A DNA stretch of 64,000 nucleotides from Gemmatimonadales bacterium. Lineage in GTDB: Bacteria > Gemmatimonadota > Gemmatimonadetes > Gemmatimonadales > GWC2-71-9. The notes below the pieces were generated by a model. That model worked only from the letters and a program-made list of their open reading frames with translations, made no database searches and was not told the DNA's origin. The stretch lies in NCBI GenBank assembly GCA_044866195.1, contig JBIOTT010000024.1, forward strand, positions 4,849 through 68,848. Reading direction: 5' to 3'. The position numbers were made by a program, and so were the translations under genes. Of this stretch, positions 35,898 to 61,945 are shown one piece after another (the first letter of the stretch is position 1; each line of letters starts with the position of its first letter).

Positions 35898-35903
35898 TTC
35901 TTA

Positions 35904-35985
35904 GAAAAAGCGTAAACGGTAAACGGTGAACGGGGGCTCCGATGATTCAAGGAGCCCCCGTTTACCGTTTACGCGGTTTCTTTTC
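35904..35985. terminator. Bidirectional intrinsic terminator between the ICL-family gene and hflX
   Basis: A 22-bp stem (35919-35940 pairs with 35951-35972, one G-U) with a 10-nt loop. It is preceded by agaaaaag and followed by ggtttcttttc. The arms are built from gtaaacg heptamers. Confidence 0.75.
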
Positions 35986-40645: not shown

Positions 40646-41605
40646 TCACCCGCCGTAGGGCACGCCGGCCGAGAGCGAGAGCAGCAGCTCCATGCGGGCC
40701 TGTGAAGGGGTGCGCGGCCCAGCCGGGACGACGCCCATGGACACGAGCCCCGCGCCGCCGCCCTCGAAGGCGTAGACCGGCGTGACCACGCCCGTGGGGC
40801 AGCGACTGGCAAGCACCACCGGCTTGCCCTCATCCAGCCAGCGTTGAATCGCCGGGATGGCGCCGGGGGGCAGGTTGCCGCTTCCGAAGGCCACGATCAC
40901 GACGCCGTCGTAGCGCGGCCGGGCCAGCTCGAGCATTTCTCCCTGGTCGCCGATCACCATGGGAACCAGGGCGACGCGCGGGCCGGAGGCCGCCAGGCGG
41001 GCGGCAGGCAGGCGGGCCGGCGCGCAGGCGGGCAGAGCGTACTCGACGCGGCCGCCTTGAACCGTCCCCAGGGCCACTCCGTGCGGGGCCGCAAAGGCGT
41101 CGAGCCGCATGGTGTCCGTCTTCACCGCCTCGTGTCCCGCGAAGACCTGCCCGGCGAACACCACGATGGCGCCGCGACCAGCGCTCCCTGGGCTCGCGAC
41201 CACTGCGGCCGCGTCCCGGAGATTGCGGGGACCATCCCAATCGGCGTCGCTGGATGTGCGCATCGCACCGGTGATCGCAACCGGGATGGCGGGGTCGAGC
41301 GTCCGCGCCAGCAGGTAGGCCGTTTCTTCTATCGTGTCGGTCCCATGGGTGATCACGATACCGCGCGGCCGATCCGGGTCTGCGGTCTGGATCTCGCGCA
41401 CCCGATTCCGCAGCGCCCAGAGGCGCTCCGGTCCCAGGTGCGCGGCCGGCACCCGGGCCCAGTTCTCGATCCGAAAGGGGGCGATCCGGTCGAGCCCCGG
41501 GATCCGGGCGACAAGTTGCTCGCCGTCGTGCGCGGGCACGTTCCCGCCGGCGGCCGGATCGTGGTGCATGGAGATCGTACCGCCGGTGAAGAGGAGATGA
41601 ATCAC
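40646..41605 (-). CDS. ansA: L-asparaginase (type I-like)
   Basis: FTGGTISM and ITHGTDTIEETAY signatures. GTG start at 41605 (GTGA overlap). Confidence 0.85.
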   Translation of the reverse strand: MIHLLFTGGTISMHHDPAAGGNVPAHDGEQLVARIPGLDRIAPFRIENWARVPAAHLGPERLWALRNRVREIQTADPDRPRGIVITHGTDTIEETAYLLARTLDPAIPVAITGAMRTSSDADWDGPRNLRDAAAVVASPGSAGRGAIVVFAGQVFAGHEAVKTDTMRLDAFAAPHGVALGTVQGGRVEYALPACAPARLPAARLAASGPRVALVPMVIGDQGEMLELARPRYDGVVIVAFGSGNLPPGAIPAIQRWLDEGKPVVLASRCPTGVVTPVYAFEGGGAGLVSMGVVPAGPRTPSQARMELLLSLSAGVPYGG

Positions 41606-42686: not shown

Positions 42687-45406
42687 CCGCCGTTGCCAAG
42701 CCAGGCTGCTACCACGGCAGGGGTCTGGGCCCGCGCATCCCCCAATCGAGCCGGATCGCCGGCGCCAGCCGATGCGAAGTGGGGCCGGCCGCCGCCCTTG
42801 CCGCCGCTGATGGCCGCGATCCGATTTACCAGATCTCCCGCCTTTCGTCCGGCGCTCACCAGATCCTCGCTCAGGGTGACGTGAATCGCGCCCCGACCCG
42901 CGGTGCCGAAGAGCACCAACACGGCGTTGCGCCGGCCCTCCCGAAACCGGTCGGCGATCTGACCCAGCTCATTCCGATCGTCGGTGGCGGTCTCCGCCAT
43001 GGTCAGCTGCACCTGATCCACCTGCAGAGTCTCGCCCTCGGCCGGGCCGGTCCCGCCGGACCGGCGGGCATCCTGGAGCCGCGCCTCGAGCCGCTGCCGG
43101 TCTTCGAGCAGTTGGTCGATCTTTCGCGCCAGGTGCTCCGGCTGGGCCTTGAGCCGCTCCGCCGCCTTGGCGATGCGGTCGTCGAGCTCCTGCAGCACGG
43201 CGTAGGCGGTTGGGCCGGTCACGGCCTCGATCCGCCGAACGCCGGCCTGAACCCCGCCCTGCCCCTTGAAGCGGAACAGGCCGACCTGACCGGTGCTGCG
43301 GACATGAGTGCCGCCGCACAGCTCGATCGAGTCGCCCATCTGCACCACCCGAACCACGTCGCCATACTTCTCGGTGAAGAATGCCATCGCGCCCAGGTCG
43401 AGCGCATCGCGGTACGGCATCTGCCGCGTGATGGTCTCGTAGTTGGCCCAGATCTGCTCGTTCACATCCCGCTCGATGGCGCGGAGCGTCTCCGGGTCGA
43501 TCGGCTCCTGATGCGTGAAGTCGAAGCGAAGCCGATCGGGCTCGACCAGCGAGCCAGCCTGCCGCACGTGGCCACCGAGATGCCGGCGCAAGGCCAGGTG
43601 GACGAGGTGAGTGGCGCTGTGGTTGCGCTCGATGTTGCGGCGGCGCGGAGTATCGACCATCGCCTCGACCGGGGTGGGATCGAACGACTCGCCGAAGCTG
43701 CCGCCGATCACCGTGCCCTTGGCCGGGTCCTTCCGCACACTGTCGACCTCGAGCGTCCAGCCGCTGCCGGCCACCGAGCCGGTGTCGCTGACCTGGCCGC
43801 CCGATTCCGCGTAGAACGGATTCTCCCGCAGCACGAGCTCGACCCGATCGCCCGCCTGGCGAAATGCCAGCAGGGCGGAGTCGGTCTGGGTCGTATCGTA
43901 CCCCACGAATTTCTGCTTGCCCCGCTTGAGCGTGCGCCAGGCGGTCGGATCCTTCGCGTGCACCGCAGGGCCGCGCGCCGGCTGCCGCCGGAACGCCCCG
44001 TCCTGCTCGACCGCCGCCGCATCCACTCCCACCGTGGCCTCCCGGCGCGCCGCACGGGAACGCTCCCGCTGCTCGGCGAGCGCGCGCTCGAACCCGGGCA
44101 GGTCGACGCGCACGCCCCGCTCGCCGGCGATGATCTCGGTGAGATCGATGGGGAAGCCGTAGGTATCGTAAAGCTTGAACGCCTCCTCCCCGGCGATCGT
44201 TTCGGCGCCGGTGGCGAAGATTTCGTCCAGCCGCTTGAGCCCGCCGTCGATCGTCTCGAGAAACCGTTCCTCTTCTGCCCGGGTGGTGTCGTGGAGATAT
44301 CCGGCCTGGCCCACCAGCTCGGGATAGATGGCGCCCATCTCGCGCACGACCACGTCGGTGAGCGGGGCGAGGGTGGGCTCGCGCCGGCCCAGCAGCCACG
44401 CGTGCCGGACGGCCCGGCGCAGGATCCGCCGCAGGACGTAGCCGCGGCCTTCGTTGCTGGGGTAGATCCCGTCGGCCAGCAGGAAGCTCACCGCCCGCGC
44501 GTGGTCCGCCAGCACCCGATACGAGGTGCTGCGGGCCCGGGCGTCGACGTTGGGATCGTCGTCATGGACGTAGTCGTACGGCCGCCCAACCAGCTCGCCC
44601 ACCCGATCGAGCAGCGGGCGGAACAGGTCGGTGTGAAAGTTGTCGTCTTCCCCCTGCATCACCGCCGCGATCCGCTCGAGACCGGCTCCGGTGTCGACCG
44701 AGGGCCGGGGCAGCGGAGTGAGCACCCCATCCAGAGCGCGATCGAACTGCATGAAGACGAGATTCCAGATCTCGAGAAACCGGCCCTCCTCGGCCAAACG
44801 CTCGAAATCTGCCTGGGCGACGACCTCCTCTGTCCGCCCGTCCGCCTGTCCGCCTGTCCGCCTGTCGAGGTCGACGTAGATCTCCGTACTCGGGCCACAG
44901 GGACCGGTGTCGCCCATCTGCCAGAAGTTGTCTTTGTCGCCCAATCCGTAGATCCGGTGGTCGGGAAGGCCCGCGATCTCACGCCAGAGCGCGCGGGCCT
45001 CCTGATCGCTGTGGTGCACCGTGACCCGCAGGCGGTCGGGGGAGAGGCCGAGCCCATCCTTGCCGGTGACGAGCTCCCAGGCGAACGCGATGGCGTCGCG
45101 CTTGAAGTAGTCGCCGAAGGAAAAGTTCCCCAGCATCTCGAAAAAAGTGTGGTGCCGCTTGGTGTGGCCGACCTGCTCGAGGTCGTTGTGCTTGCCCCCC
45201 GCGCGGACCACCTTCTGGCAGGTGGCCGCCCGGACATACTCGCGCCGCTCCTGTCCGAGAAACACACGCTTGAACTGCACCATGCCGGCGTTGGTGAACA
45301 GCAGCGTCGGGTCGTCCTTGGGTTCCAGGGACGAAGAGGGCACCTTGCGGTGCCCCCGGGCGACGAAGAAGTCGAGGAAAAGCCGGCGGATGTCAGCGGA
45401 ACGCAT
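42683..45406 (-). CDS. alaS: Alanine--tRNA ligase
   Basis: MRSADIRRLFLDFFVARGHRKVPSSSL, FTNAGMVQFK, GDTGPCGP, and the editing-domain HSATHL...CGGTH. Confidence 0.95.
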   Translation of the reverse strand: MRSADIRRLFLDFFVARGHRKVPSSSLEPKDDPTLLFTNAGMVQFKRVFLGQERREYVRAATCQKVVRAGGKHNDLEQVGHTKRHHTFFEMLGNFSFGDYFKRDAIAFAWELVTGKDGLGLSPDRLRVTVHHSDQEARALWREIAGLPDHRIYGLGDKDNFWQMGDTGPCGPSTEIYVDLDRRTGGQADGRTEEVVAQADFERLAEEGRFLEIWNLVFMQFDRALDGVLTPLPRPSVDTGAGLERIAAVMQGEDDNFHTDLFRPLLDRVGELVGRPYDYVHDDDPNVDARARSTSYRVLADHARAVSFLLADGIYPSNEGRGYVLRRILRRAVRHAWLLGRREPTLAPLTDVVVREMGAIYPELVGQAGYLHDTTRAEEERFLETIDGGLKRLDEIFATGAETIAGEEAFKLYDTYGFPIDLTEIIAGERGVRVDLPGFERALAEQRERSRAARREATVGVDAAAVEQDGAFRRQPARGPAVHAKDPTAWRTLKRGKQKFVGYDTTQTDSALLAFRQAGDRVELVLRENPFYAESGGQVSDTGSVAGSGWTLEVDSVRKDPAKGTVIGGSFGESFDPTPVEAMVDTPRRRNIERNHSATHLVHLALRRHLGGHVRQAGSLVEPDRLRFDFTHQEPIDPETLRAIERDVNEQIWANYETITRQMPYRDALDLGAMAFFTEKYGDVVRVVQMGDSIELCGGTHVRSTGQVGLFRFKGQGGVQAGVRRIEAVTGPTAYAVLQELDDRIAKAAERLKAQPEHLARKIDQLLEDRQRLEARLQDARRSGGTGPAEGETLQVDQVQLTMAETATDDRNELGQIADRFREGRRNAVLVLFGTAGRGAIHVTLSEDLVSAGRKAGDLVNRIAAISGGKGGGRPHFASAGAGDPARLGDARAQTPAVVAAWLGNGG
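44831..44866. repeat. Tandem octamers (t/c)gtccgcc x4 inside alaS
   Basis: tgtccgcc cgtccgcc tgtccgcc tgtccgcc tgtc. On the coding strand this reads DRRTGGQADGRT, in a variable catalytic-domain loop. Confidence 0.85.
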
Positions 45407-45432
45407 TGGGGGAAAATATAGGCGGGGAAGCT

Positions 45433-45570
45433 AGCGGGCAGCTAATCCGCTATCCGCTATCCGCTAGCCGCCAAGGCACGAGGATCTCGGCCGCTCGGAG
45501 ATGCCTGCGCGCGAACGGATAGCAGCGGATGGCGGATAGCGGATAGCCGATAGCGGGGTAGCGGCCAGCT
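45433..45570. repeat. Long imperfect inverted repeat built from atccgct/agcggat heptamers (recX-alaS intergenic)
   Basis: Arms 45433-45472 and 45531-45570 give ~34 of 40 positions paired by hand. The 58-nt loop contains a nested hairpin (ggca..atctc/gagatgcc). The recX stop codon lies in the right arm. Confidence 0.8.
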
Positions 45571-46186
45571 ACCCAAGCACCCCTGCCACTGCCTCGAGCG
45601 CCTCCCGGCCGCCGAACCCTCGCCGCGCGAGATAGGCCAGCAGTCGGCGACGCTTCACCGGCCGCGGCAGGCCCTCCAGCTGGGCGGCACGCTTGGCGGC
45701 GAGTGCCGCCGGAAGCGCGCGGCGGTCGGTGTCGGCGGGCCACTGCTCGGCGATGGCCGTATCGATGCAGCCGCGGGCAACCCCCAACATGCTCAGGTCT
45801 CGGGCCAGGCGGGCCGGCCCGCGACCGCGCTCGGCTCGCGTGGCCACGTAGTGGCGGGCGAACGCCAAGTCGTCCAGCAGCCCCGCACGCTCCGCCCGGG
45901 TCAATGCAGCTTCGACCGCCTCGGCAGCCAGGCCCCGCCGCTGCAAGCGCCGGCCCAGATCCACCCGTGCGTGGGGACGGCGCTCCAGCGCGCGGAGCAC
46001 GGTGCGATAGGCGGCTTCGATATCGGCGGCCCGGGCCAGCCGCTCACTGGCCGGCCCATCGAGCGCCTGGCCCGATCCGAGCCCCGCAACCGCATCGCGA
46101 TCGACCGTGGCGAACGGCCGGCCCTCTACCAGCACCCGCACGCTGCCCGGGCGGCGAGGATCGGCCTCGATCGCGGTGACGATCAC
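45569..46186 (-). CDS. recX: Recombination regulator RecX
   Basis: RecX helical repeats ([29 protein letters not shown]...FARHYV). GTG start at 46186 (GTGA overlap with the recA stop). Confidence 0.85.
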
Positions 46187-47226
46187 TCCTCCTCCACCCC
46201 GACTCCCGCAGCGGCCGCCTTCATGCCGAGCACTTCCTTCACCTTGGCTTCGACTTCGGTCTGGAGCGCCGGATTGTCCCGCAGGAAGAGCTTCGCATTC
46301 TCCCGGCCCTGCCCGATACGCTGGTCGCCGTAGGAGTACCACGCCCCCGACTTCTGGATGATGTTCGCCTCCGCGGCGAGATCCACCAGCAGGGCGGTGT
46401 GGCTAATGCCCTCGTCGAACATCACGTCGAACTCGGCCTGACGGAACGGCGGCGCCACCTTATTTTTGACGACCTTCACCCGCACGTGGCTCCCGATCAC
46501 CGCCTCACGCTCCTTCACCGGCCCGATGCGCCGGATGTCGAGCCGCAGCGACGCGTAGAACTTGAGCGCCTTGCCGCCGGTGGTGGTCTCCGGATTGCCG
46601 AACATGACACCGATCTTTTCGCGCAGCTGATTGATGAAGACGACCGCGCAGTTGGAGCGGTTGATCGCACCCGCGAGCTTCCGGAGTGCCTGGCTCATGA
46701 GCCGGGCCTGCAGCCCCACGTGGCTGTCACCCATCTCGCCTTCGATTTCCGCCTTGGGCACGAGGGCGGCGACCGAATCGACGATGACGAGATCCACCGC
46801 CCCGGAGCGCACCAGAATCTCCACGATCTCGAGCGCCTGCTCGCCGGTGTCGGGCTGCGAGACCAGCAGGTTCTCGATATCGACGCCCAGCTTCTTGGCG
46901 TACTCGATGTCGAGTGCGTGCTCGGCGTCGACATAGGCCGCGACACCACCCGCCCGCTGCACGTTGGCGACCAAGTGGAGCGAGAGGGTTGTTTTGCCGG
47001 ACGACTCGGGGCCGTAGATCTCGGTGATGCGGCCCCGGGGCACGCCTCCGATCCCGGTGGCGGCATCGAGGTTGATGGCGCCGGTGGGGATCGCCGCCAC
47101 CCGGACCCGCGGCGACTCGGCGCCCATCCGCATGATGGAGCCCTTGCCGAGCTGCTTTTCGATCTGCGAGATGGCGAGGCCCAGCGCCTTGCGGCGATCG
47201 GCGTCGAGTCGAGTCTCTTCGGCCAT
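46183..47226 (-). CDS. recA: Recombinase RecA
   Basis: [22 protein letters not shown], Walker [10 protein letters not shown], and [38 protein letters not shown]. Start re-picked at ATG 47226 with a GAGG RBS. Confidence 0.97.
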
Positions 47227-47282
47227 TGGGACGACCTCGATATAAACGTGGATGATTTTGCTACACCTGAGTACTGCCAACC

Positions 47283-47311
47283 AAGATATTACCGAATACT
47301 TCCCGAATCAA
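47283..47311 (-). promoter_or_regulatory. Candidate sigma70-type promoter of recA
   Basis: On the minus strand, TTGATT-17 nt-TATCTT, ~55 nt upstream of the recA ATG. This is pattern only. Confidence 0.35.
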
Positions 47312-47353
47312 GAGGTTTCTACTGGCTGATTTTGCACCATAATGGGTTTTTCA

Positions 47354-47461
47354 CCACGGAGGCACGGAGGCACAGAGCACGATCGATGTGGCTTCGCGAG
47401 CCGCGATCTCAAGCCCCAGGCCACCACCCCAAACCACCTCTGTGCCTCCGTGCCTCCGTGG
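47354..47461. repeat. 108-bp element with perfect 24-bp terminal inverted repeats (MITE-like or I-shaped terminator)
   Basis: ccacggaggcacggaggcacagag (47354-47377) is the exact reverse complement of 47438-47461, with a 60-nt spacer. TTTTCA is present immediately on both sides (47348-47353 and 47462-47467). Confidence 0.7.
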
Positions 47462-47503
47462 TTTTCAGTTTCTGCCTTTTCTGCCTTTGCGGCTGACGCT
47501 TTG

Positions 47504-47902
47504 TCATACCCTCCATGCGTCCTGCAGGTGCTCCACCGCCGGCTCGCCCGAAGCACCCTCCCATACGCTCACCACGTCGAACCGGTATCCGTCGTTTGCC
47601 CGGCCGAACCGCGACTGCCAGCAGGCGGCGACCCGCGCCAGGATTGCCTGCTTCCGGGCGCTGACGGCTTCGGCCGGTGCGCCACAGCGGGCGCTCTTTC
47701 GGGTTTTCACTTCGACGAAAGCAATCAGGCGGCCGCGACGGGCCACCAGATCGAGATCGTGCCGGCCGAAGCGGAACCGATGGGCTTCGATCTCCCAGCC
47801 GCAGGAGACCAGATATGCGAGCGCCACCAGCTCGCCCCGCAAGCCACGAATGTGGCGGCGATCGGTCCATTGGGCGGCGGGAACAAACGACGGATCAGGC
47901 AT
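47504..47902 (-). CDS. yraN: YraN family (UPF0102) endonuclease-like protein
   Basis: GELVALAYLVSCGWEIEAHRFRFGRHDLDLVARRGRLIAFVEVKTR. Confidence 0.8.
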   Translation of the reverse strand: MPDPSFVPAAQWTDRRHIRGLRGELVALAYLVSCGWEIEAHRFRFGRHDLDLVARRGRLIAFVEVKTRKSARCGAPAEAVSARKQAILARVAACWQSRFGRANDGYRFDVVSVWEGASGEPAVEHLQDAWRV

Positions 47903-47976
47903 GCAGCGAAACTAGGAAAGCACCGTGGGGGGCGGCCCATCCAATCCGCGCGGGCCAGCGCCGAATCATCGGCGAC

Positions 47977-49080
<1,104 letters not shown>

Positions 49081-59671: not shown

Positions 59672-61945
59672 CTAGCTGCAGTACTCCTCGACCTGGTCGA
59701 TCCCGATCCGGACGTCGCGCGGCTTGCTCCCGTTCTGGGGACCGAGAATCCCTGCCTCTTCCAGCTGATCCATCAGGCGGGCCGCGCGGCCGTAGCCGAT
59801 GCCGAGCTTGCGTTGGAGGAGCGAGGTGGAGCCGCCCTGGTTCTGCACGCAGGCGATCGCGGCGTCCTTGAAGAGGGGGTCTCGCTCGGACGCGTCGAAG
59901 GGTTCGCCGCCGGCCGCTTCGCCCGCTTCGGTGTCCGGCACCTCGTCCAGGATGTTGGTCTCCACGGCCTCCGTGGCCCCGCGCTCCTTCTGTTCCCGCA
60001 CCCACTCGCGATACCGCTTCATAAGCTTCTCGGTCTCCTCGGTGCCGATGTAGGCCCCCTGAAGGCGCATCGGCTCGCTCTTCCCCGGCTCGAGGAACAG
60101 CATATCGCCTTTGCCAAGCAGGGCCTCGGCCCCGTTCTGGTCGAGAATGGTGCGGCTATCCACCTTCTGCGCGACCCGGAAGGCGATCCGGCTGGGGAAG
60201 TTGGCCTTGATCAGCCCGGTGATGACGTTCACCGAGGGTCGCTGGGTCGCCACGATCAGGTGCAGGCCCACGGCCCGCGCCTTCTGCGCCAGTCGCGCGA
60301 GGTGCAATTCCACCTCGGCTTGCACGGTCATCATGAGATCGGCCAGCTCGTCCACCACCACGACGATCAGGGGCAGCTTGCCCTGGGTATAGACCTCGTC
60401 CTGCGACGGCTGGGGCGGCGTGTCCGGCGATTCCGCCGCGATTTCGATGAGCGTGATCTTCTTGGGCACGGGGTTCCTGAGCGGCTTGCCGTCGGCAACC
60501 TTGCGGTTGAAGTCGGTGACGTTGCGCGCGCCGTTCGCCTCGAGCAGCGCGTACCGCCGCTCCATCTCCCCAACCGCCCACTTGAGAACTACGGCGGCCT
60601 CCTTGTAGTTCGTCACCACCGGGTGGCGCAGGTGCGGCAGGCCGTTGTACATCGAGAGCTCGACCATCTTGGGATCGATCATCAGAAGCCGCAGGTCTTC
60701 CTTGTGCTGGTATTGGTACAGCAGCGATGTGATGATCGCGTTGATCCCGACCGATTTGCCGGTGCCGGTGGCGCCCGCGATGAGGAGGTGCGGCATCTTC
60801 CCCAGGTCGGCGATGACGGGACGGCCCTCGAGATCGAGGCCGAGCGCGACGGGGAGAAGGCGATCTTCGCCCTGCCAGGTCTCGTCCTCCAGCAGCTCGC
60901 GAAGCATGACCACCCGCGATTTGGGGTTGGGCACTTCGACGCCGACCATGTCCCGTCCCGGAATCCGAGCCACCCGGATCGAGCGCGCACTCATCTTGAG
61001 CGCGAGATCGTCGGCCAGGGTGACCAGCCTATTCATCTTGACGCCGGGCCGGAGGCGAACGCCGTACTGCGTGACCACCGGCCCGGTGGTGCGCCCGGCG
61101 ACATCGCCCTCGACTTTGAACTCGGCCAGCGTAGCCTCGAGTCGTTCCTGCAGCGAGTCGAGCTCGCTCTCGCCGGCATCGACCGCCTTCCCGGAGGGAG
61201 GATCGAGGAGCTCGACGTCCCACACGGCGGACAGGCGGACAGGCGGACGGGCGGGCAGGGCGGCCCGGCGGACGGGCGGACGGGCGGACGGAGACTTCGG
61301 TGTACTAAAGCCAGCTTGGACGCCGGGAGCGCCGTCCGCCTGCCCGCCTGCCCGCCTGCCCGCCTGGTCCGCCTGTCCGCCTGTCCGCCCGTCCGCCCTG
61401 TCCGCCTTGTCCGCCTGTCCGCCGGTCCGCTTGCCGGCCCGTCCGCCCGTCCGCCCGTCCGCCTCCAACCGCTGCAGCGGATGCCACGCGAAGGTGAGCA
61501 GGGTGAGCGCCGAGAGTGCGAGAAATCCCAGCAGCACGGCCCCTGCGAGGCCGACCCGGTCCGAGACCACCTCCGCCAGCATGCCGGGGAGCAGTCCCGC
61601 GAGTCGGGCCGGCAGGGCGCGCTGCTCCACGTCCGGGACCAGATCCAGGTAGCTCACCTGGGTCACCACGCCGACGAGATAGGGCAGCAGCAAGCTCAGT
61701 CCGACCATCAGCGCCGCCGCTCGCTTCATGTCGAGCCGGCCGAGCCGCTCGAATCCTGCGAGCGCGAGGCCCAGGCCTAGCAACGGGAGTCCGATCGCGC
61801 CGGCGCCGAGCGCGTGCCAGAGCGCGTGGCCGATCCAGCGCCCGACCGGGCCGGTGAGCGCAAACGGGAGTAGCGTGAGCCCGACGAAGACGCCGAGCAC
61901 CAGCGCCGTAATGGCGCCGAGCCGGCGGCGGGAGTCGGCGGTCAT
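59672..61945 (-). CDS. ftsK: DNA translocase FtsK/SpoIIIE
   Basis: N-terminal TM domain. Walker A AGATGTGKSV, plus VVVVDELADLMM, IVATQRPSVNVITG, and a C-terminal gamma (winged-helix) domain STSLLQRKLGIGYGRAARLMDQLE. Confidence 0.93.
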   Translation of the reverse strand: MTADSRRRLGAITALVLGVFVGLTLLPFALTGPVGRWIGHALWHALGAGAIGLPLLGLGLALAGFERLGRLDMKRAAALMVGLSLLLPYLVGVVTQVSYLDLVPDVEQRALPARLAGLLPGMLAEVVSDRVGLAGAVLLGFLALSALTLLTFAWHPLQRLEADGRTGGRAGKRTGGQADKADRADGRTGGQADQAGRRAGGQADGAPGVQAGFSTPKSPSARPPVRRAALPARPPVRLSAVWDVELLDPPSGKAVDAGESELDSLQERLEATLAEFKVEGDVAGRTTGPVVTQYGVRLRPGVKMNRLVTLADDLALKMSARSIRVARIPGRDMVGVEVPNPKSRVVMLRELLEDETWQGEDRLLPVALGLDLEGRPVIADLGKMPHLLIAGATGTGKSVGINAIITSLLYQYQHKEDLRLLMIDPKMVELSMYNGLPHLRHPVVTNYKEAAVVLKWAVGEMERRYALLEANGARNVTDFNRKVADGKPLRNPVPKKITLIEIAAESPDTPPQPSQDEVYTQGKLPLIVVVVDELADLMMTVQAEVELHLARLAQKARAVGLHLIVATQRPSVNVITGLIKANFPSRIAFRVAQKVDSRTILDQNGAEALLGKGDMLFLEPGKSEPMRLQGAYIGTEETEKLMKRYREWVREQKERGATEAVETNILDEVPDTEAGEAAGGEPFDASERDPLFKDAAIACVQNQGGSTSLLQRKLGIGYGRAARLMDQLEEAGILGPQNGSKPRDVRIGIDQVEEYCS
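61226..61464. repeat. Inverted arrays of GGCGGAC(A/G) octamers inside the ftsK linker
   Basis: About 8 units of ggcggac(a/g) at 61226-61291, a 41-nt spacer, then about 16 units of the reverse complement (c/t)gtccgcc at 61333-61464. Confidence 0.9.

Follow-up and report, generated by a model that had tools for sequence, protein, structure and literature searches.

We analysed a palindromic element in the spacer between yraN and recA of a Gemmatimonadales bacterium, in a stretch of 64,000 nucleotides of contig JBIOTT010000024.1 (hereafter the window). The neighbouring genes, yraN, recA, recX and then alaS, are all on the minus strand, and the element lies, as a preliminary description made from the letters alone had placed it, between the yraN stop codon (47504-47506) and the promoter region of recA, whose start is at 47226. 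It consists of an inverted repeat, 47353-47377 and 47438-47462, with arms that are complementary at 25 of 25 positions (100%) and 60 nt between them. The perfect inverted termini that had been described are indeed there, each arm being one base longer than the 24 nt originally given, and the hexamer TTTTCA is present outside both ends as reported; the outer A/T pair of the 25-nt arms overlaps each hexamer by one base (the last base of the left one and the first base of the right one). The features of the locus are listed below, where 'family' refers to the dispersed hairpins of the following section and L-numbers denote the loci retrieved from other genomes.

46183-47226, minus strand: recA (from the list of open reading frames (ORFs); Pfam RecA_N/RecA_C on orthologous genes)
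47227-47339, minus strand: conserved recA upstream region, nearly invariant in 7-9 relatives including those with an empty site, and left untouched by the element
47340-47503, minus strand: whole clade-specific block of ~164 nt, made of a 42-nt leader, the hairpin and a 14-nt trailer; missing in the outgroup
47348-47353: left TTTTCA, of which TTCA is the family's conserved outer end (TTCACCAC)
47353-47377: left arm, A followed by CCACGGAGGCACGGAGGCACAGAG, about three tandem 8-nt units CACRGAGG; pairs with 47438-47462
47378-47437: loop of 60 nt, with internal pairing of its own in the folds of both strands
47438-47462: right arm, CTCTGTGCCTCCGTGCCTCCGTGG followed by T, three units CCTCYGTG
47462-47467: right TTTTCA, TGAAAA on the mRNA strand; kept in L122, L125 and L147, absent in L148 and the empty sites
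47469-47486: TTTCTGCCT twice, a 9-nt slippage duplication private to the window lineage; L122 and L125 have a single copy (gccagaaag, mRNA strand)
47504-47902, minus strand: yraN (UPF0102; PF02021, E 7.7e-22; Gemmatimonadales homologues are named YraN), its stop 42 nt before the hairpin

Each arm is an array of period 8, reported by Tandem Repeats Finder as CACGGAGG x3.5 and CCTCCGTG x3.0. The same program finds the 9-mer TTTCTGCCT x2.2 at 47469-47488, in keeping with the twofold tandem already recognised at 47469-47486. The 24-mer arm occurs at only two sites in the 64-kb window with three mismatches allowed, and at none in 100 shuffles. The minus (mRNA) strand folds with -85.1 kcal/mol (z -5.2 vs shuffles) and the plus strand with -76.9 kcal/mol (z -6.7 vs shuffles). 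That the spacer holds no ORF is correct in substance; a 29-codon GTG..TGA frame does cross the loop and the 3' arm, but it was discarded as a gene, since the orthologues do not conserve it.

The only public contig with an identical yraN is a Logan contig (SRR30692709; L001), which corresponds to positions 47344-48489 of the window. It ends 10 bases before the hairpin, as is typical of an assembler break at a perfect inverted repeat. A look-up of the exact RecA protein for more contigs spanning the hairpin found none on record.

A cross-phylum family of octamer-armed hairpins

A seed scan with the 20-mer CACGGAGGCACGGAGGCACA of the arm against one genome per species retrieved at least 120 species-genome stretches, with more than 15 phyla among the matches listed. 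Carriers among these matches include Acidobacteriota, Gemmatimonadota, Planctomycetota, Bacteroidota, Lentisphaerota, Verrucomicrobiota, Spirochaetota, Nitrospirota and Myxococcota, as well as Clostridia, a Streptomyces and a Methanothrix metagenome-assembled genome (MAG). A partner arm of at least 17/24 complementarity accompanies the seed in 73 of the at least 120 matches, with loops of 4 to more than 400 nt. The likeness extends beyond the 20-mer itself: GAG follows it directly (+1 to +3) in 111-117 of 123 matches, the hairpins typically end in TTCACC...GGTGAA or CTCTCAC...GTGAGAG, and the units differ only at two purine positions (CAC-RR-AGG). In 818 kb of seeded loci we counted 248 degenerate arrays, against 0 after shuffling. 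The arm in the window fits the family pattern in its CRCRGAGN units, its ..CAC / GTG.. outer end and its CACAGAG inner end, and it shares 24 identical nt with the 5' arms of two gene-bearing cassettes (L100 and L152).

Further copies of a dispersed inverted-repeat family, as the MITE-like (miniature inverted-repeat transposable element) reading of the preliminary description implied, do exist in other genomes (at least 120 stretches) and in several of these as multiple copies; the source DNA itself has a single hairpin copy in the 64-kb window. The Gemmatimonadales chromosome OY969570.1 carries at least three exact arms (at 0.03, 2.42 and 5.66 Mb) and further degenerate copies, and a Phycisphaerales bin (bin70) has six family loci. 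L010 and L115, two copies 536 kb apart on one Vicinamibacterales contig, have 92.8% identity across 277 bp that take in the loop, and their flanks are unrelated. Satellite-like arrays of whole hairpin units, head to tail, were also seen, with ~9 units of period ~218 nt in a Pirellulales genome (L070:1953-3758) and a period of ~150 nt in a Clostridia MAG (L085:1-700 and L101).

By crude ORF calls, family hairpins in co-directional contexts lie at a median of ~25-30 nt from the upstream stop and ~140 nt from the downstream start. The same calls put 26 of the 73 hairpins 'inside' long spurious ORFs and gave no clear depletion between divergent genes; the gene-context classes were set aside and the distance trend alone was used. 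Mismatches in the arms are G-U in 134 cases and A-C in 61, a difference that is uninformative on RNA-level selection, the search having fixed the purine arm at G-rich units. Viral contigs were considered as a vector of the arm and rejected, with 1 match only.

A search of Rfam 15 left the element without a match at E up to 10; for 16 family loci it gave no curated family, just look-alikes of microRNA precursors that scored below threshold. Searches with the arm strings, the octamer repeats and GxxExxY/PDDEXK_3 (see below) found no account of the element in the searchable literature, and no searchable source appears to describe either the family or its link to GxxExxY genes.

The gene-bearing form encloses a GxxExxY gene

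Some of the long family loops hold an ORF of 126 amino acids that matches TIGR04256 'GxxExxY protein' (E 5e-39) and PF13366 PDDEXK_3 (E 9e-39). In the 818 kb of seeded loci, all four GxxExxY homologues (4/4) lie within ~150 nt of an arm, and no other cargo gene recurs beside the arms. A longer form with the same arms, as would be expected of a MITE, thus exists, although its gene belongs to GxxExxY/PDDEXK_3 and is not a known transposase.

The association was also approached from the side of the gene. An independent protein-similarity scan of metagenome contigs gave 80 GxxExxY loci, in which 61 genes were complete and had both flanks. Two or more periodic CRCNRMG units were found within 70 nt upstream in 48/61 (79%) and within 100 nt downstream in 44/61, while the same criterion gave 10% in control windows of the same loci and 1.5% in the query window. 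The position of the arms is exact. The last unit ends precisely at the ATG in 25 of 39 genes and precisely one unit (8 nt) away in five more, and in 22 of 35 no more than 25 nt, most often 6 nt, separate the stop from the start of the 3' arm. With this spacing, the 8-nt period would always put GGAG(G) at Shine-Dalgarno distance from the ATG, paired with CCUCC of the other arm. More distant homologues, at 40-45% identity, have units of the ACGCAGAG type instead; arm sequence and protein thus vary together.

The density of hairpin-only copies is 0.16 per kb beside GxxExxY genes, compared with 0.016 per kb in the window. The copy at the yraN-recA site, with its non-coding loop of 60 nt and without a GxxExxY gene, belongs to this hairpin-only class, as also found beside the cassettes. 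At several loci (L178:888-2465, L174, L182, L188, L213 and L217) GxxExxY cassettes stand in tandem or have, on either side, complete hairpins that lack a gene and are built of the same type of unit.

PDDEXK_3 is listed as a family of unknown function with 'multiple transfers, mixed clades' (PMC3424549), and a sequence-based search for solved structures of GxxExxY found none. YraN and GxxExxY are both small proteins of the PD-(D/E)XK type, but their comparison by hhalign (probability 0.2%) gives no support for homology.

History of the element at the yraN-recA site

Orthologous yraN-recA spacers were gathered from relatives and compared by alignment, together with a neighbour-joining tree. Empty sites were looked for among them, and one was found in the outgroup (L149/L150). 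The states of the site, with the identity of YraN to that of the window, are as follows.

Window, YraN 100%: hairpin present
L122/L123, YraN 86%: hairpin present
L125, YraN 84%: hairpin present
L147, YraN 80%: 5' arm and start of the loop only; the yraN stop codon lies within TGAAAACCAC
L126-L128, YraN 79%: empty; TGATCA after the stop retained, as in L122
L148, YraN 75%: hairpin present
L149 and L150 (outgroup), YraN 71% and 69%: empty; the stop is followed by GGTGGA(T/C) and CAAAATCAG (conserved recA upstream), with no hairpin

The neighbour-joining tree nests L126 in the hairpin-carrying clade, and the simplest history would be one gain, one loss and one half-deletion. The window, L122, L125, L147 and L148 have two to three units, which differ by G/A changes at the R positions only, and the loops are very different among the hairpin carriers. 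In a first MAFFT alignment the loops looked unalignable, because of a loop inversion: the window loop scores 26.5 and 24.5 against those of L122 and L125 in reverse orientation, compared with 6.5 and 5.0 in the same orientation and 4.5 +/- 2 (maximum 12) in shuffles. The outer flanks are colinear throughout despite the loop reversal, and the loop remnant of L147 has the orientation of the window. Since the loop matches its relatives only when reversed while the flanks stay colinear, we conclude that the arms recombined and flipped the loop. The same recombination accounts for the perfect arms in the window beside mismatched arms in the orthologues. On these comparisons the element is to be regarded as old at the site and vertically inherited, and not as a recent insertion.

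A second family arm, CCTCTGTGCCTCTGTGG, was seen in L125 within a TTAGCCR heptamer hairpin in the spacer between an ABC transporter gene and yraN (L125:2625-2812), upstream of yraN. The yraN gene of L125 is thus flanked by complementary arms; the window has no such second arm.

The recA upstream region and other short-unit repeats

From its resemblance to the consensus, a candidate recA promoter can be placed at -35 TTGATT (47311-47306) and, after 17 nt, -10 TATCTT (47288-47283). Two GCAAAATCA boxes on the minus strand, at 47335-47327 and 47261-47253, bracket this candidate promoter and are conserved in 9/9 relatives compared. The boxes may be the site of a regulator, perhaps a LexA-like one.

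The window contains five tandem-repeat-armed hairpins, the yraN-recA one included, with unrelated units; shuffles contain 0. One of them (35903-35981) has arms of GTAAACG x3 and CCGTTTA x2 and lies between two convergent genes, one isocitrate-lyase-like (stop 35897) and the other hflX (stop 35969). Preceded by AGAAAAAG (an A-tract) and followed by TTTCTTTT (a T-tract), it looks like a normal bidirectional terminator in shape, built from tandem heptamers. In the recX-alaS spacer (45432-45571), heptamer arms of ATCCGCT and AGCGGAT enclose a 56-nt loop. This hairpin is kept in L122:3095-3275, L126:12166-12320 and L147:4005-4192, including relatives that lack the yraN-recA element, and its size ranges from 2 to 12 units; L147 has 12 AGCGGAT on one arm and 3 on the other, and the outgroup has only GCTGATA x2. 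Within ftsK (59672-61945, minus strand), inverted arrays of the octamer GGCGGACA (61226-61291 and 61330-61464, with 8 and ~16 units) fall in the FtsK linker, where they are translated as GRTGGQAD-type repeats; the linkers of L126, L149 and L150 are unrelated, of low complexity and of similar length. The fifth is a weak AGCTGG case.

The ftsK-type octamer is also present inside alaS at 44830-44866 (CTGTCCGC x4.6), in a variable surface segment of AlaRS (DRRTGGQADGRTEEV) for which relatives have unrelated residues of the same length. An intergenic array at 40975-41035 mixes CAGG, CGCGCAGG and a 16-19-nt repeat. Finally, three viral or proviral contigs (L133, L135 and L138) contain long side-by-side runs of GCTNNCN-type heptamers (GCTATCC, GCTGTCC, GCTGACA, GCTATCG and GCTAACG), so that environmental phage or prophage DNA, too, commonly holds arrays of short units with related sequences.

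Origin of the element and alternative explanations

Taken together, these results make it probable that the yraN-recA hairpin is a gene-less ('orphan') copy of a cross-phylum palindromic family, the gene-bearing form of which holds a GxxExxY gene in its loop, and that a single ancestral gain at this site was followed by change in place. Our verdict on the element is that of a resident palindromic repeat evolving in place, similar to MITEs and to repetitive extragenic palindromic (REP) sequences.

The arms of such a repeat would amount to repeated Shine-Dalgarno-like GGAGG paired with CCUCC. In the gene-bearing form, the 126-residue GxxExxY/PDDEXK_3 protein (PD-(D/E)XK superfamily) would be encoded in the loop, the 5' arm usually ending at the ATG and the 3' arm starting a few bases past the stop. 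A block of ~164 nt with the hairpin would have entered the yraN-recA spacer, or arisen there, a single time in the ancestor of one sub-clade of the Gemmatimonadales, and would have been inherited vertically since. Replication slippage would then have set the number of units at two to three and duplicated the neighbouring 9-mer, arm-to-arm recombination or conversion would have inverted the loop in some lineages relative to others and preserved the identity of the arms, and deletion would have left half an element in one lineage and removed all of it in another. Of this account, we regard as shown the membership of the family, the family's association with the gene, the empty site of the outgroup, the changes in unit number, the inverted loop and the lack of a target-site duplication. 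The spread and homogenisation of copies could be the work of the GxxExxY nuclease or of hairpin-templated strand switching. At the yraN-recA site the element is probably just a very stable stem-loop in the 3' untranslated region of yraN or in read-through RNA, where it might act as a barrier to RNase III or exonuclease or insulate recA in part; the recA promoter does not appear to need it.

A further step can be proposed tentatively, by analogy with REPIN-RAYT. The octamer hairpins and the GxxExxY genes may together constitute an unrecognised cross-phylum selfish system, in which the PD-(D/E)XK nuclease would recognise or cut the hairpin or cruciform and copy or homogenise the gene-less hairpins, and in which the arms would clamp the nuclease mRNA by pairing of Shine-Dalgarno and anti-Shine-Dalgarno sequences. 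We see this as a possibility that falls somewhat short of being probable.

Several observations weigh against an origin from such a family. The gene is present in just 4 of ~120 seeded copies, there is no GxxExxY homologue within the 64-kb window, and the arms of a cassette fit their own partner only modestly better than the arms of other cassettes (10.3 vs 7.2, p 0.011). The real arm has 1 match among viral contigs, compared with 6 for a permuted control 20-mer and 10 for ATCCGCT x3. The two proteins on which the neighbour-joining tree was built are short or conserved. Since arbitrary sequences of 7-8 nt commonly occur in tandem, the count of matches is by itself no proof of common descent, and some of the at least 120 arm matches could be convergent. 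In-situ slippage alone can build such hairpins, and the window has four others with unrelated units that are absent from shuffles. Common descent of the family copies is better supported by the shared ends and by the link to the gene.

The strongest alternative is that of a home-grown stem-loop without mobile ancestry, which grew by slippage and hairpin-templated correction like the heptamer pairs of cyanobacteria and Xanthomonas, its likeness to hairpins elsewhere being convergence on GGAGG/CCUCC. Besides the four other hairpins and the abundance of arbitrary tandem 8-mers, the ATCCGCT hairpin of the recX-alaS spacer speaks for it, being kept in place among relatives with units that number from 3 to 12, as do hairpins with many different 7-mers in other phyla and the published inverted heptamer pairs (PMC4692102, PMC2670836). 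However, the identity to other phyla exceeds the unit, taking in the CACAGAG inner end and the TCACC/CTCAC outer end; the tie to one gene family is tight and exact in position; dispersed copies, including their loops, are near-identical within one genome; and the outgroup site has no precursor stem. We judge a purely local origin unlikely.

Less likely still is a functional, I-shaped terminator or insulator without a U-tract, which would end yraN transcripts before the recA promoter or stop antisense transcripts of the plus strand. The very stable stem stands 42 nt past the yraN stop and upstream of the conserved recA promoter, family hairpins in general tend to adjoin upstream stops, and on the plus strand the stem is followed by the U-rich tail TTTTCAGTTTCTGCCTTTTCTGCCTTT, and a scan reports a terminator-like site at 47448-47461. 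The mRNA strand continues with GUGAAAAACCC, with no U-run, and A-runs lie on both sides of the stem. Intrinsic terminators have a short GC-rich stem, a loop of 3-8 nt and a U-run, and a stem of 25 bp with a loop of 60 nt is far beyond these norms; a terminator of normal shape, with A-tract, stem and T-tract, is in use elsewhere in this genome, between the convergent genes at 35903-35981. Relatives with an empty site have the same gene order and promoter and no hairpin, orthologous copies are decaying or half-deleted, and the flipped loop argues against strand-specific constraint. The U-tract-less terminator raised as an alternative in the preliminary description could thus apply in a non-canonical sense only, a canonical one being unsupported. 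A role of the stem-loop in the yraN 3' untranslated region is plausible, and with its U-rich tail on the plus strand the element could stop antisense transcription.

Lower yet is our estimate for a classic MITE, inserted recently by a transposase, with terminal inverted repeats of 24 bp and TTTTCA as a target-site duplication of 6 bp; this reading is largely refuted. The perfect arms, the identical hexamers on both sides, the empty site in outgroup relatives and the dispersed copies in other genomes all suit such an insertion, but the duplication itself does not stand up. A flanking direct repeat of at least 3 nt is absent in 55/64 family hairpins, just as in 55.6 of the mismatched-flank control, and no target-site duplication is found at the dispersed copies L010 and L115. 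The left TTCA belongs to the family consensus (T)TCACCAC. In place of the TTTTCA repeats, GAACC...GGTTC stands in L148, a more basal orthologue; the empty site of the outgroup is without TGAAAA, and the extra block measures ~164 nt, against the 108+6 expected from the element and a duplication. The element must be old, since relatives whose YraN is no more than 75% identical still have it, their loops and unit numbers having diverged; the arms are tandem repeats of variable number and not fixed termini; and no transposase is associated. The MITE label that was first attached to the element is accordingly apt in a loose sense, for a non-coding inverted-repeat member of a dispersed family with a gene-bearing relative, and fails for a copy that is old, syntenic, evolving in place and without a target-site duplication.

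A site or small RNA dedicated to recA control (such as a palindrome bound by a repressor, or a small RNA related to SOS) might be suspected from the proximity of recA and the palindromic, repeated units, but it is highly improbable: the element is absent in the outgroup and in one ingroup lineage, all with an identical recA upstream region, the same arms stand beside unrelated genes in many phyla, Rfam has no match, and a recA upstream region conserved with or without the hairpin means that the element is not part of recA control.

Significance and comparison with known systems

For the biology of recA the element is probably incidental, and it is the GxxExxY link, rather than the recA context, that deserves follow-up. 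The large GxxExxY/PDDEXK_3 family has spread horizontally and is without a known function; a position-exact link to a hairpin offers it a first functional context and a testable substrate. Cataloguing these hairpins would help to mask false signals, as it would account for numerous spurious small ORFs (with translations such as ...LCASVPPW and HGGTEAQR) as well as assembly breaks such as that of L001. The states of the locus, which may be empty, full, flipped, half-deleted or lost, also form a series on how long perfect palindromes persist and change in bacterial genomes.

The element shares with MITEs a length of ~100-300 bp, the lack of coding capacity, terminal inverted repeats (here 25/25 nt), multiple copies in some genomes and a longer gene-bearing relative with the same ends. 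It differs from them in having no target-site duplication and no transposase, in termini that are expanding and contracting arrays, and in being an ancient, syntenic copy. Intrinsic terminators, including I-shaped ones, likewise have a GC-rich stem just past a stop codon, but the present stem of 25 bp encloses a loop of 60 nt, the transcribed strand lacks a U-run, and relatives can dispense with the element.

Another parallel is provided by the intervening sequences (IVS) of 23S rRNA, in which a small ORF sits in a long hairpin that is cleaved by RNase III. Like the gene-bearing form of the present family, they carry, looped out of a long and perfect stem, a small gene whose function is unknown, and they are multi-copy, horizontally spread and found in the same kinds of phyla. 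Unlike IVS, the hairpins described here are intergenic and not in rRNA, and the gene family is a different one.

Closer are the short tandemly repeated repetitive (STRR) heptamers of cyanobacteria, which form hairpins between genes (PMC2670836), and the GGGAATC heptamers of Xanthomonas, which form 70-75 convergent pairs in each genome (Rehm et al. 2015, PMC4692102). These too are short intergenic tandem units, often in convergent arrays able to pair, whose number varies while type and position are kept; their function is unknown, with transcript stability suggested. In our case the unit is 8 nt instead of 7 nt, it occurs across more than 15 phyla and is tied to a gene family, and the arrays have two to three units around a long unique loop.

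The REP/REPIN-RAYT systems (REPtrons) resemble the family in their short, dispersed, intergenic hairpin repeats, mostly just downstream of genes and without target-site duplication, in a small nuclease-type gene flanked by inverted repeats, and in long persistence with vertical inheritance. One criterion given for REPs is a GTAG or CGTC head on a palindrome of 20-40 nt (PMC3733652); the present hairpins have variable-number tandem 8-nt units instead of a fixed palindrome, and no such head was found, their outer end being (T)TCACCAC or CTCTCAC. No RAYT (Y1/HUH) gene was seen in the loci, in which no exhaustive search was made, and the flanked gene is of the PD-(D/E)XK family GxxExxY (PF13366) rather than an HUH/Y1 RAYT; an action of this protein on the repeat is our proposal. 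The arm sequence is also common to many phyla, in contrast to the lineage-specific REPs. The element is thus a member of neither REP/REPIN-RAYT nor the STRR-type hairpins, although these are the closest known systems.

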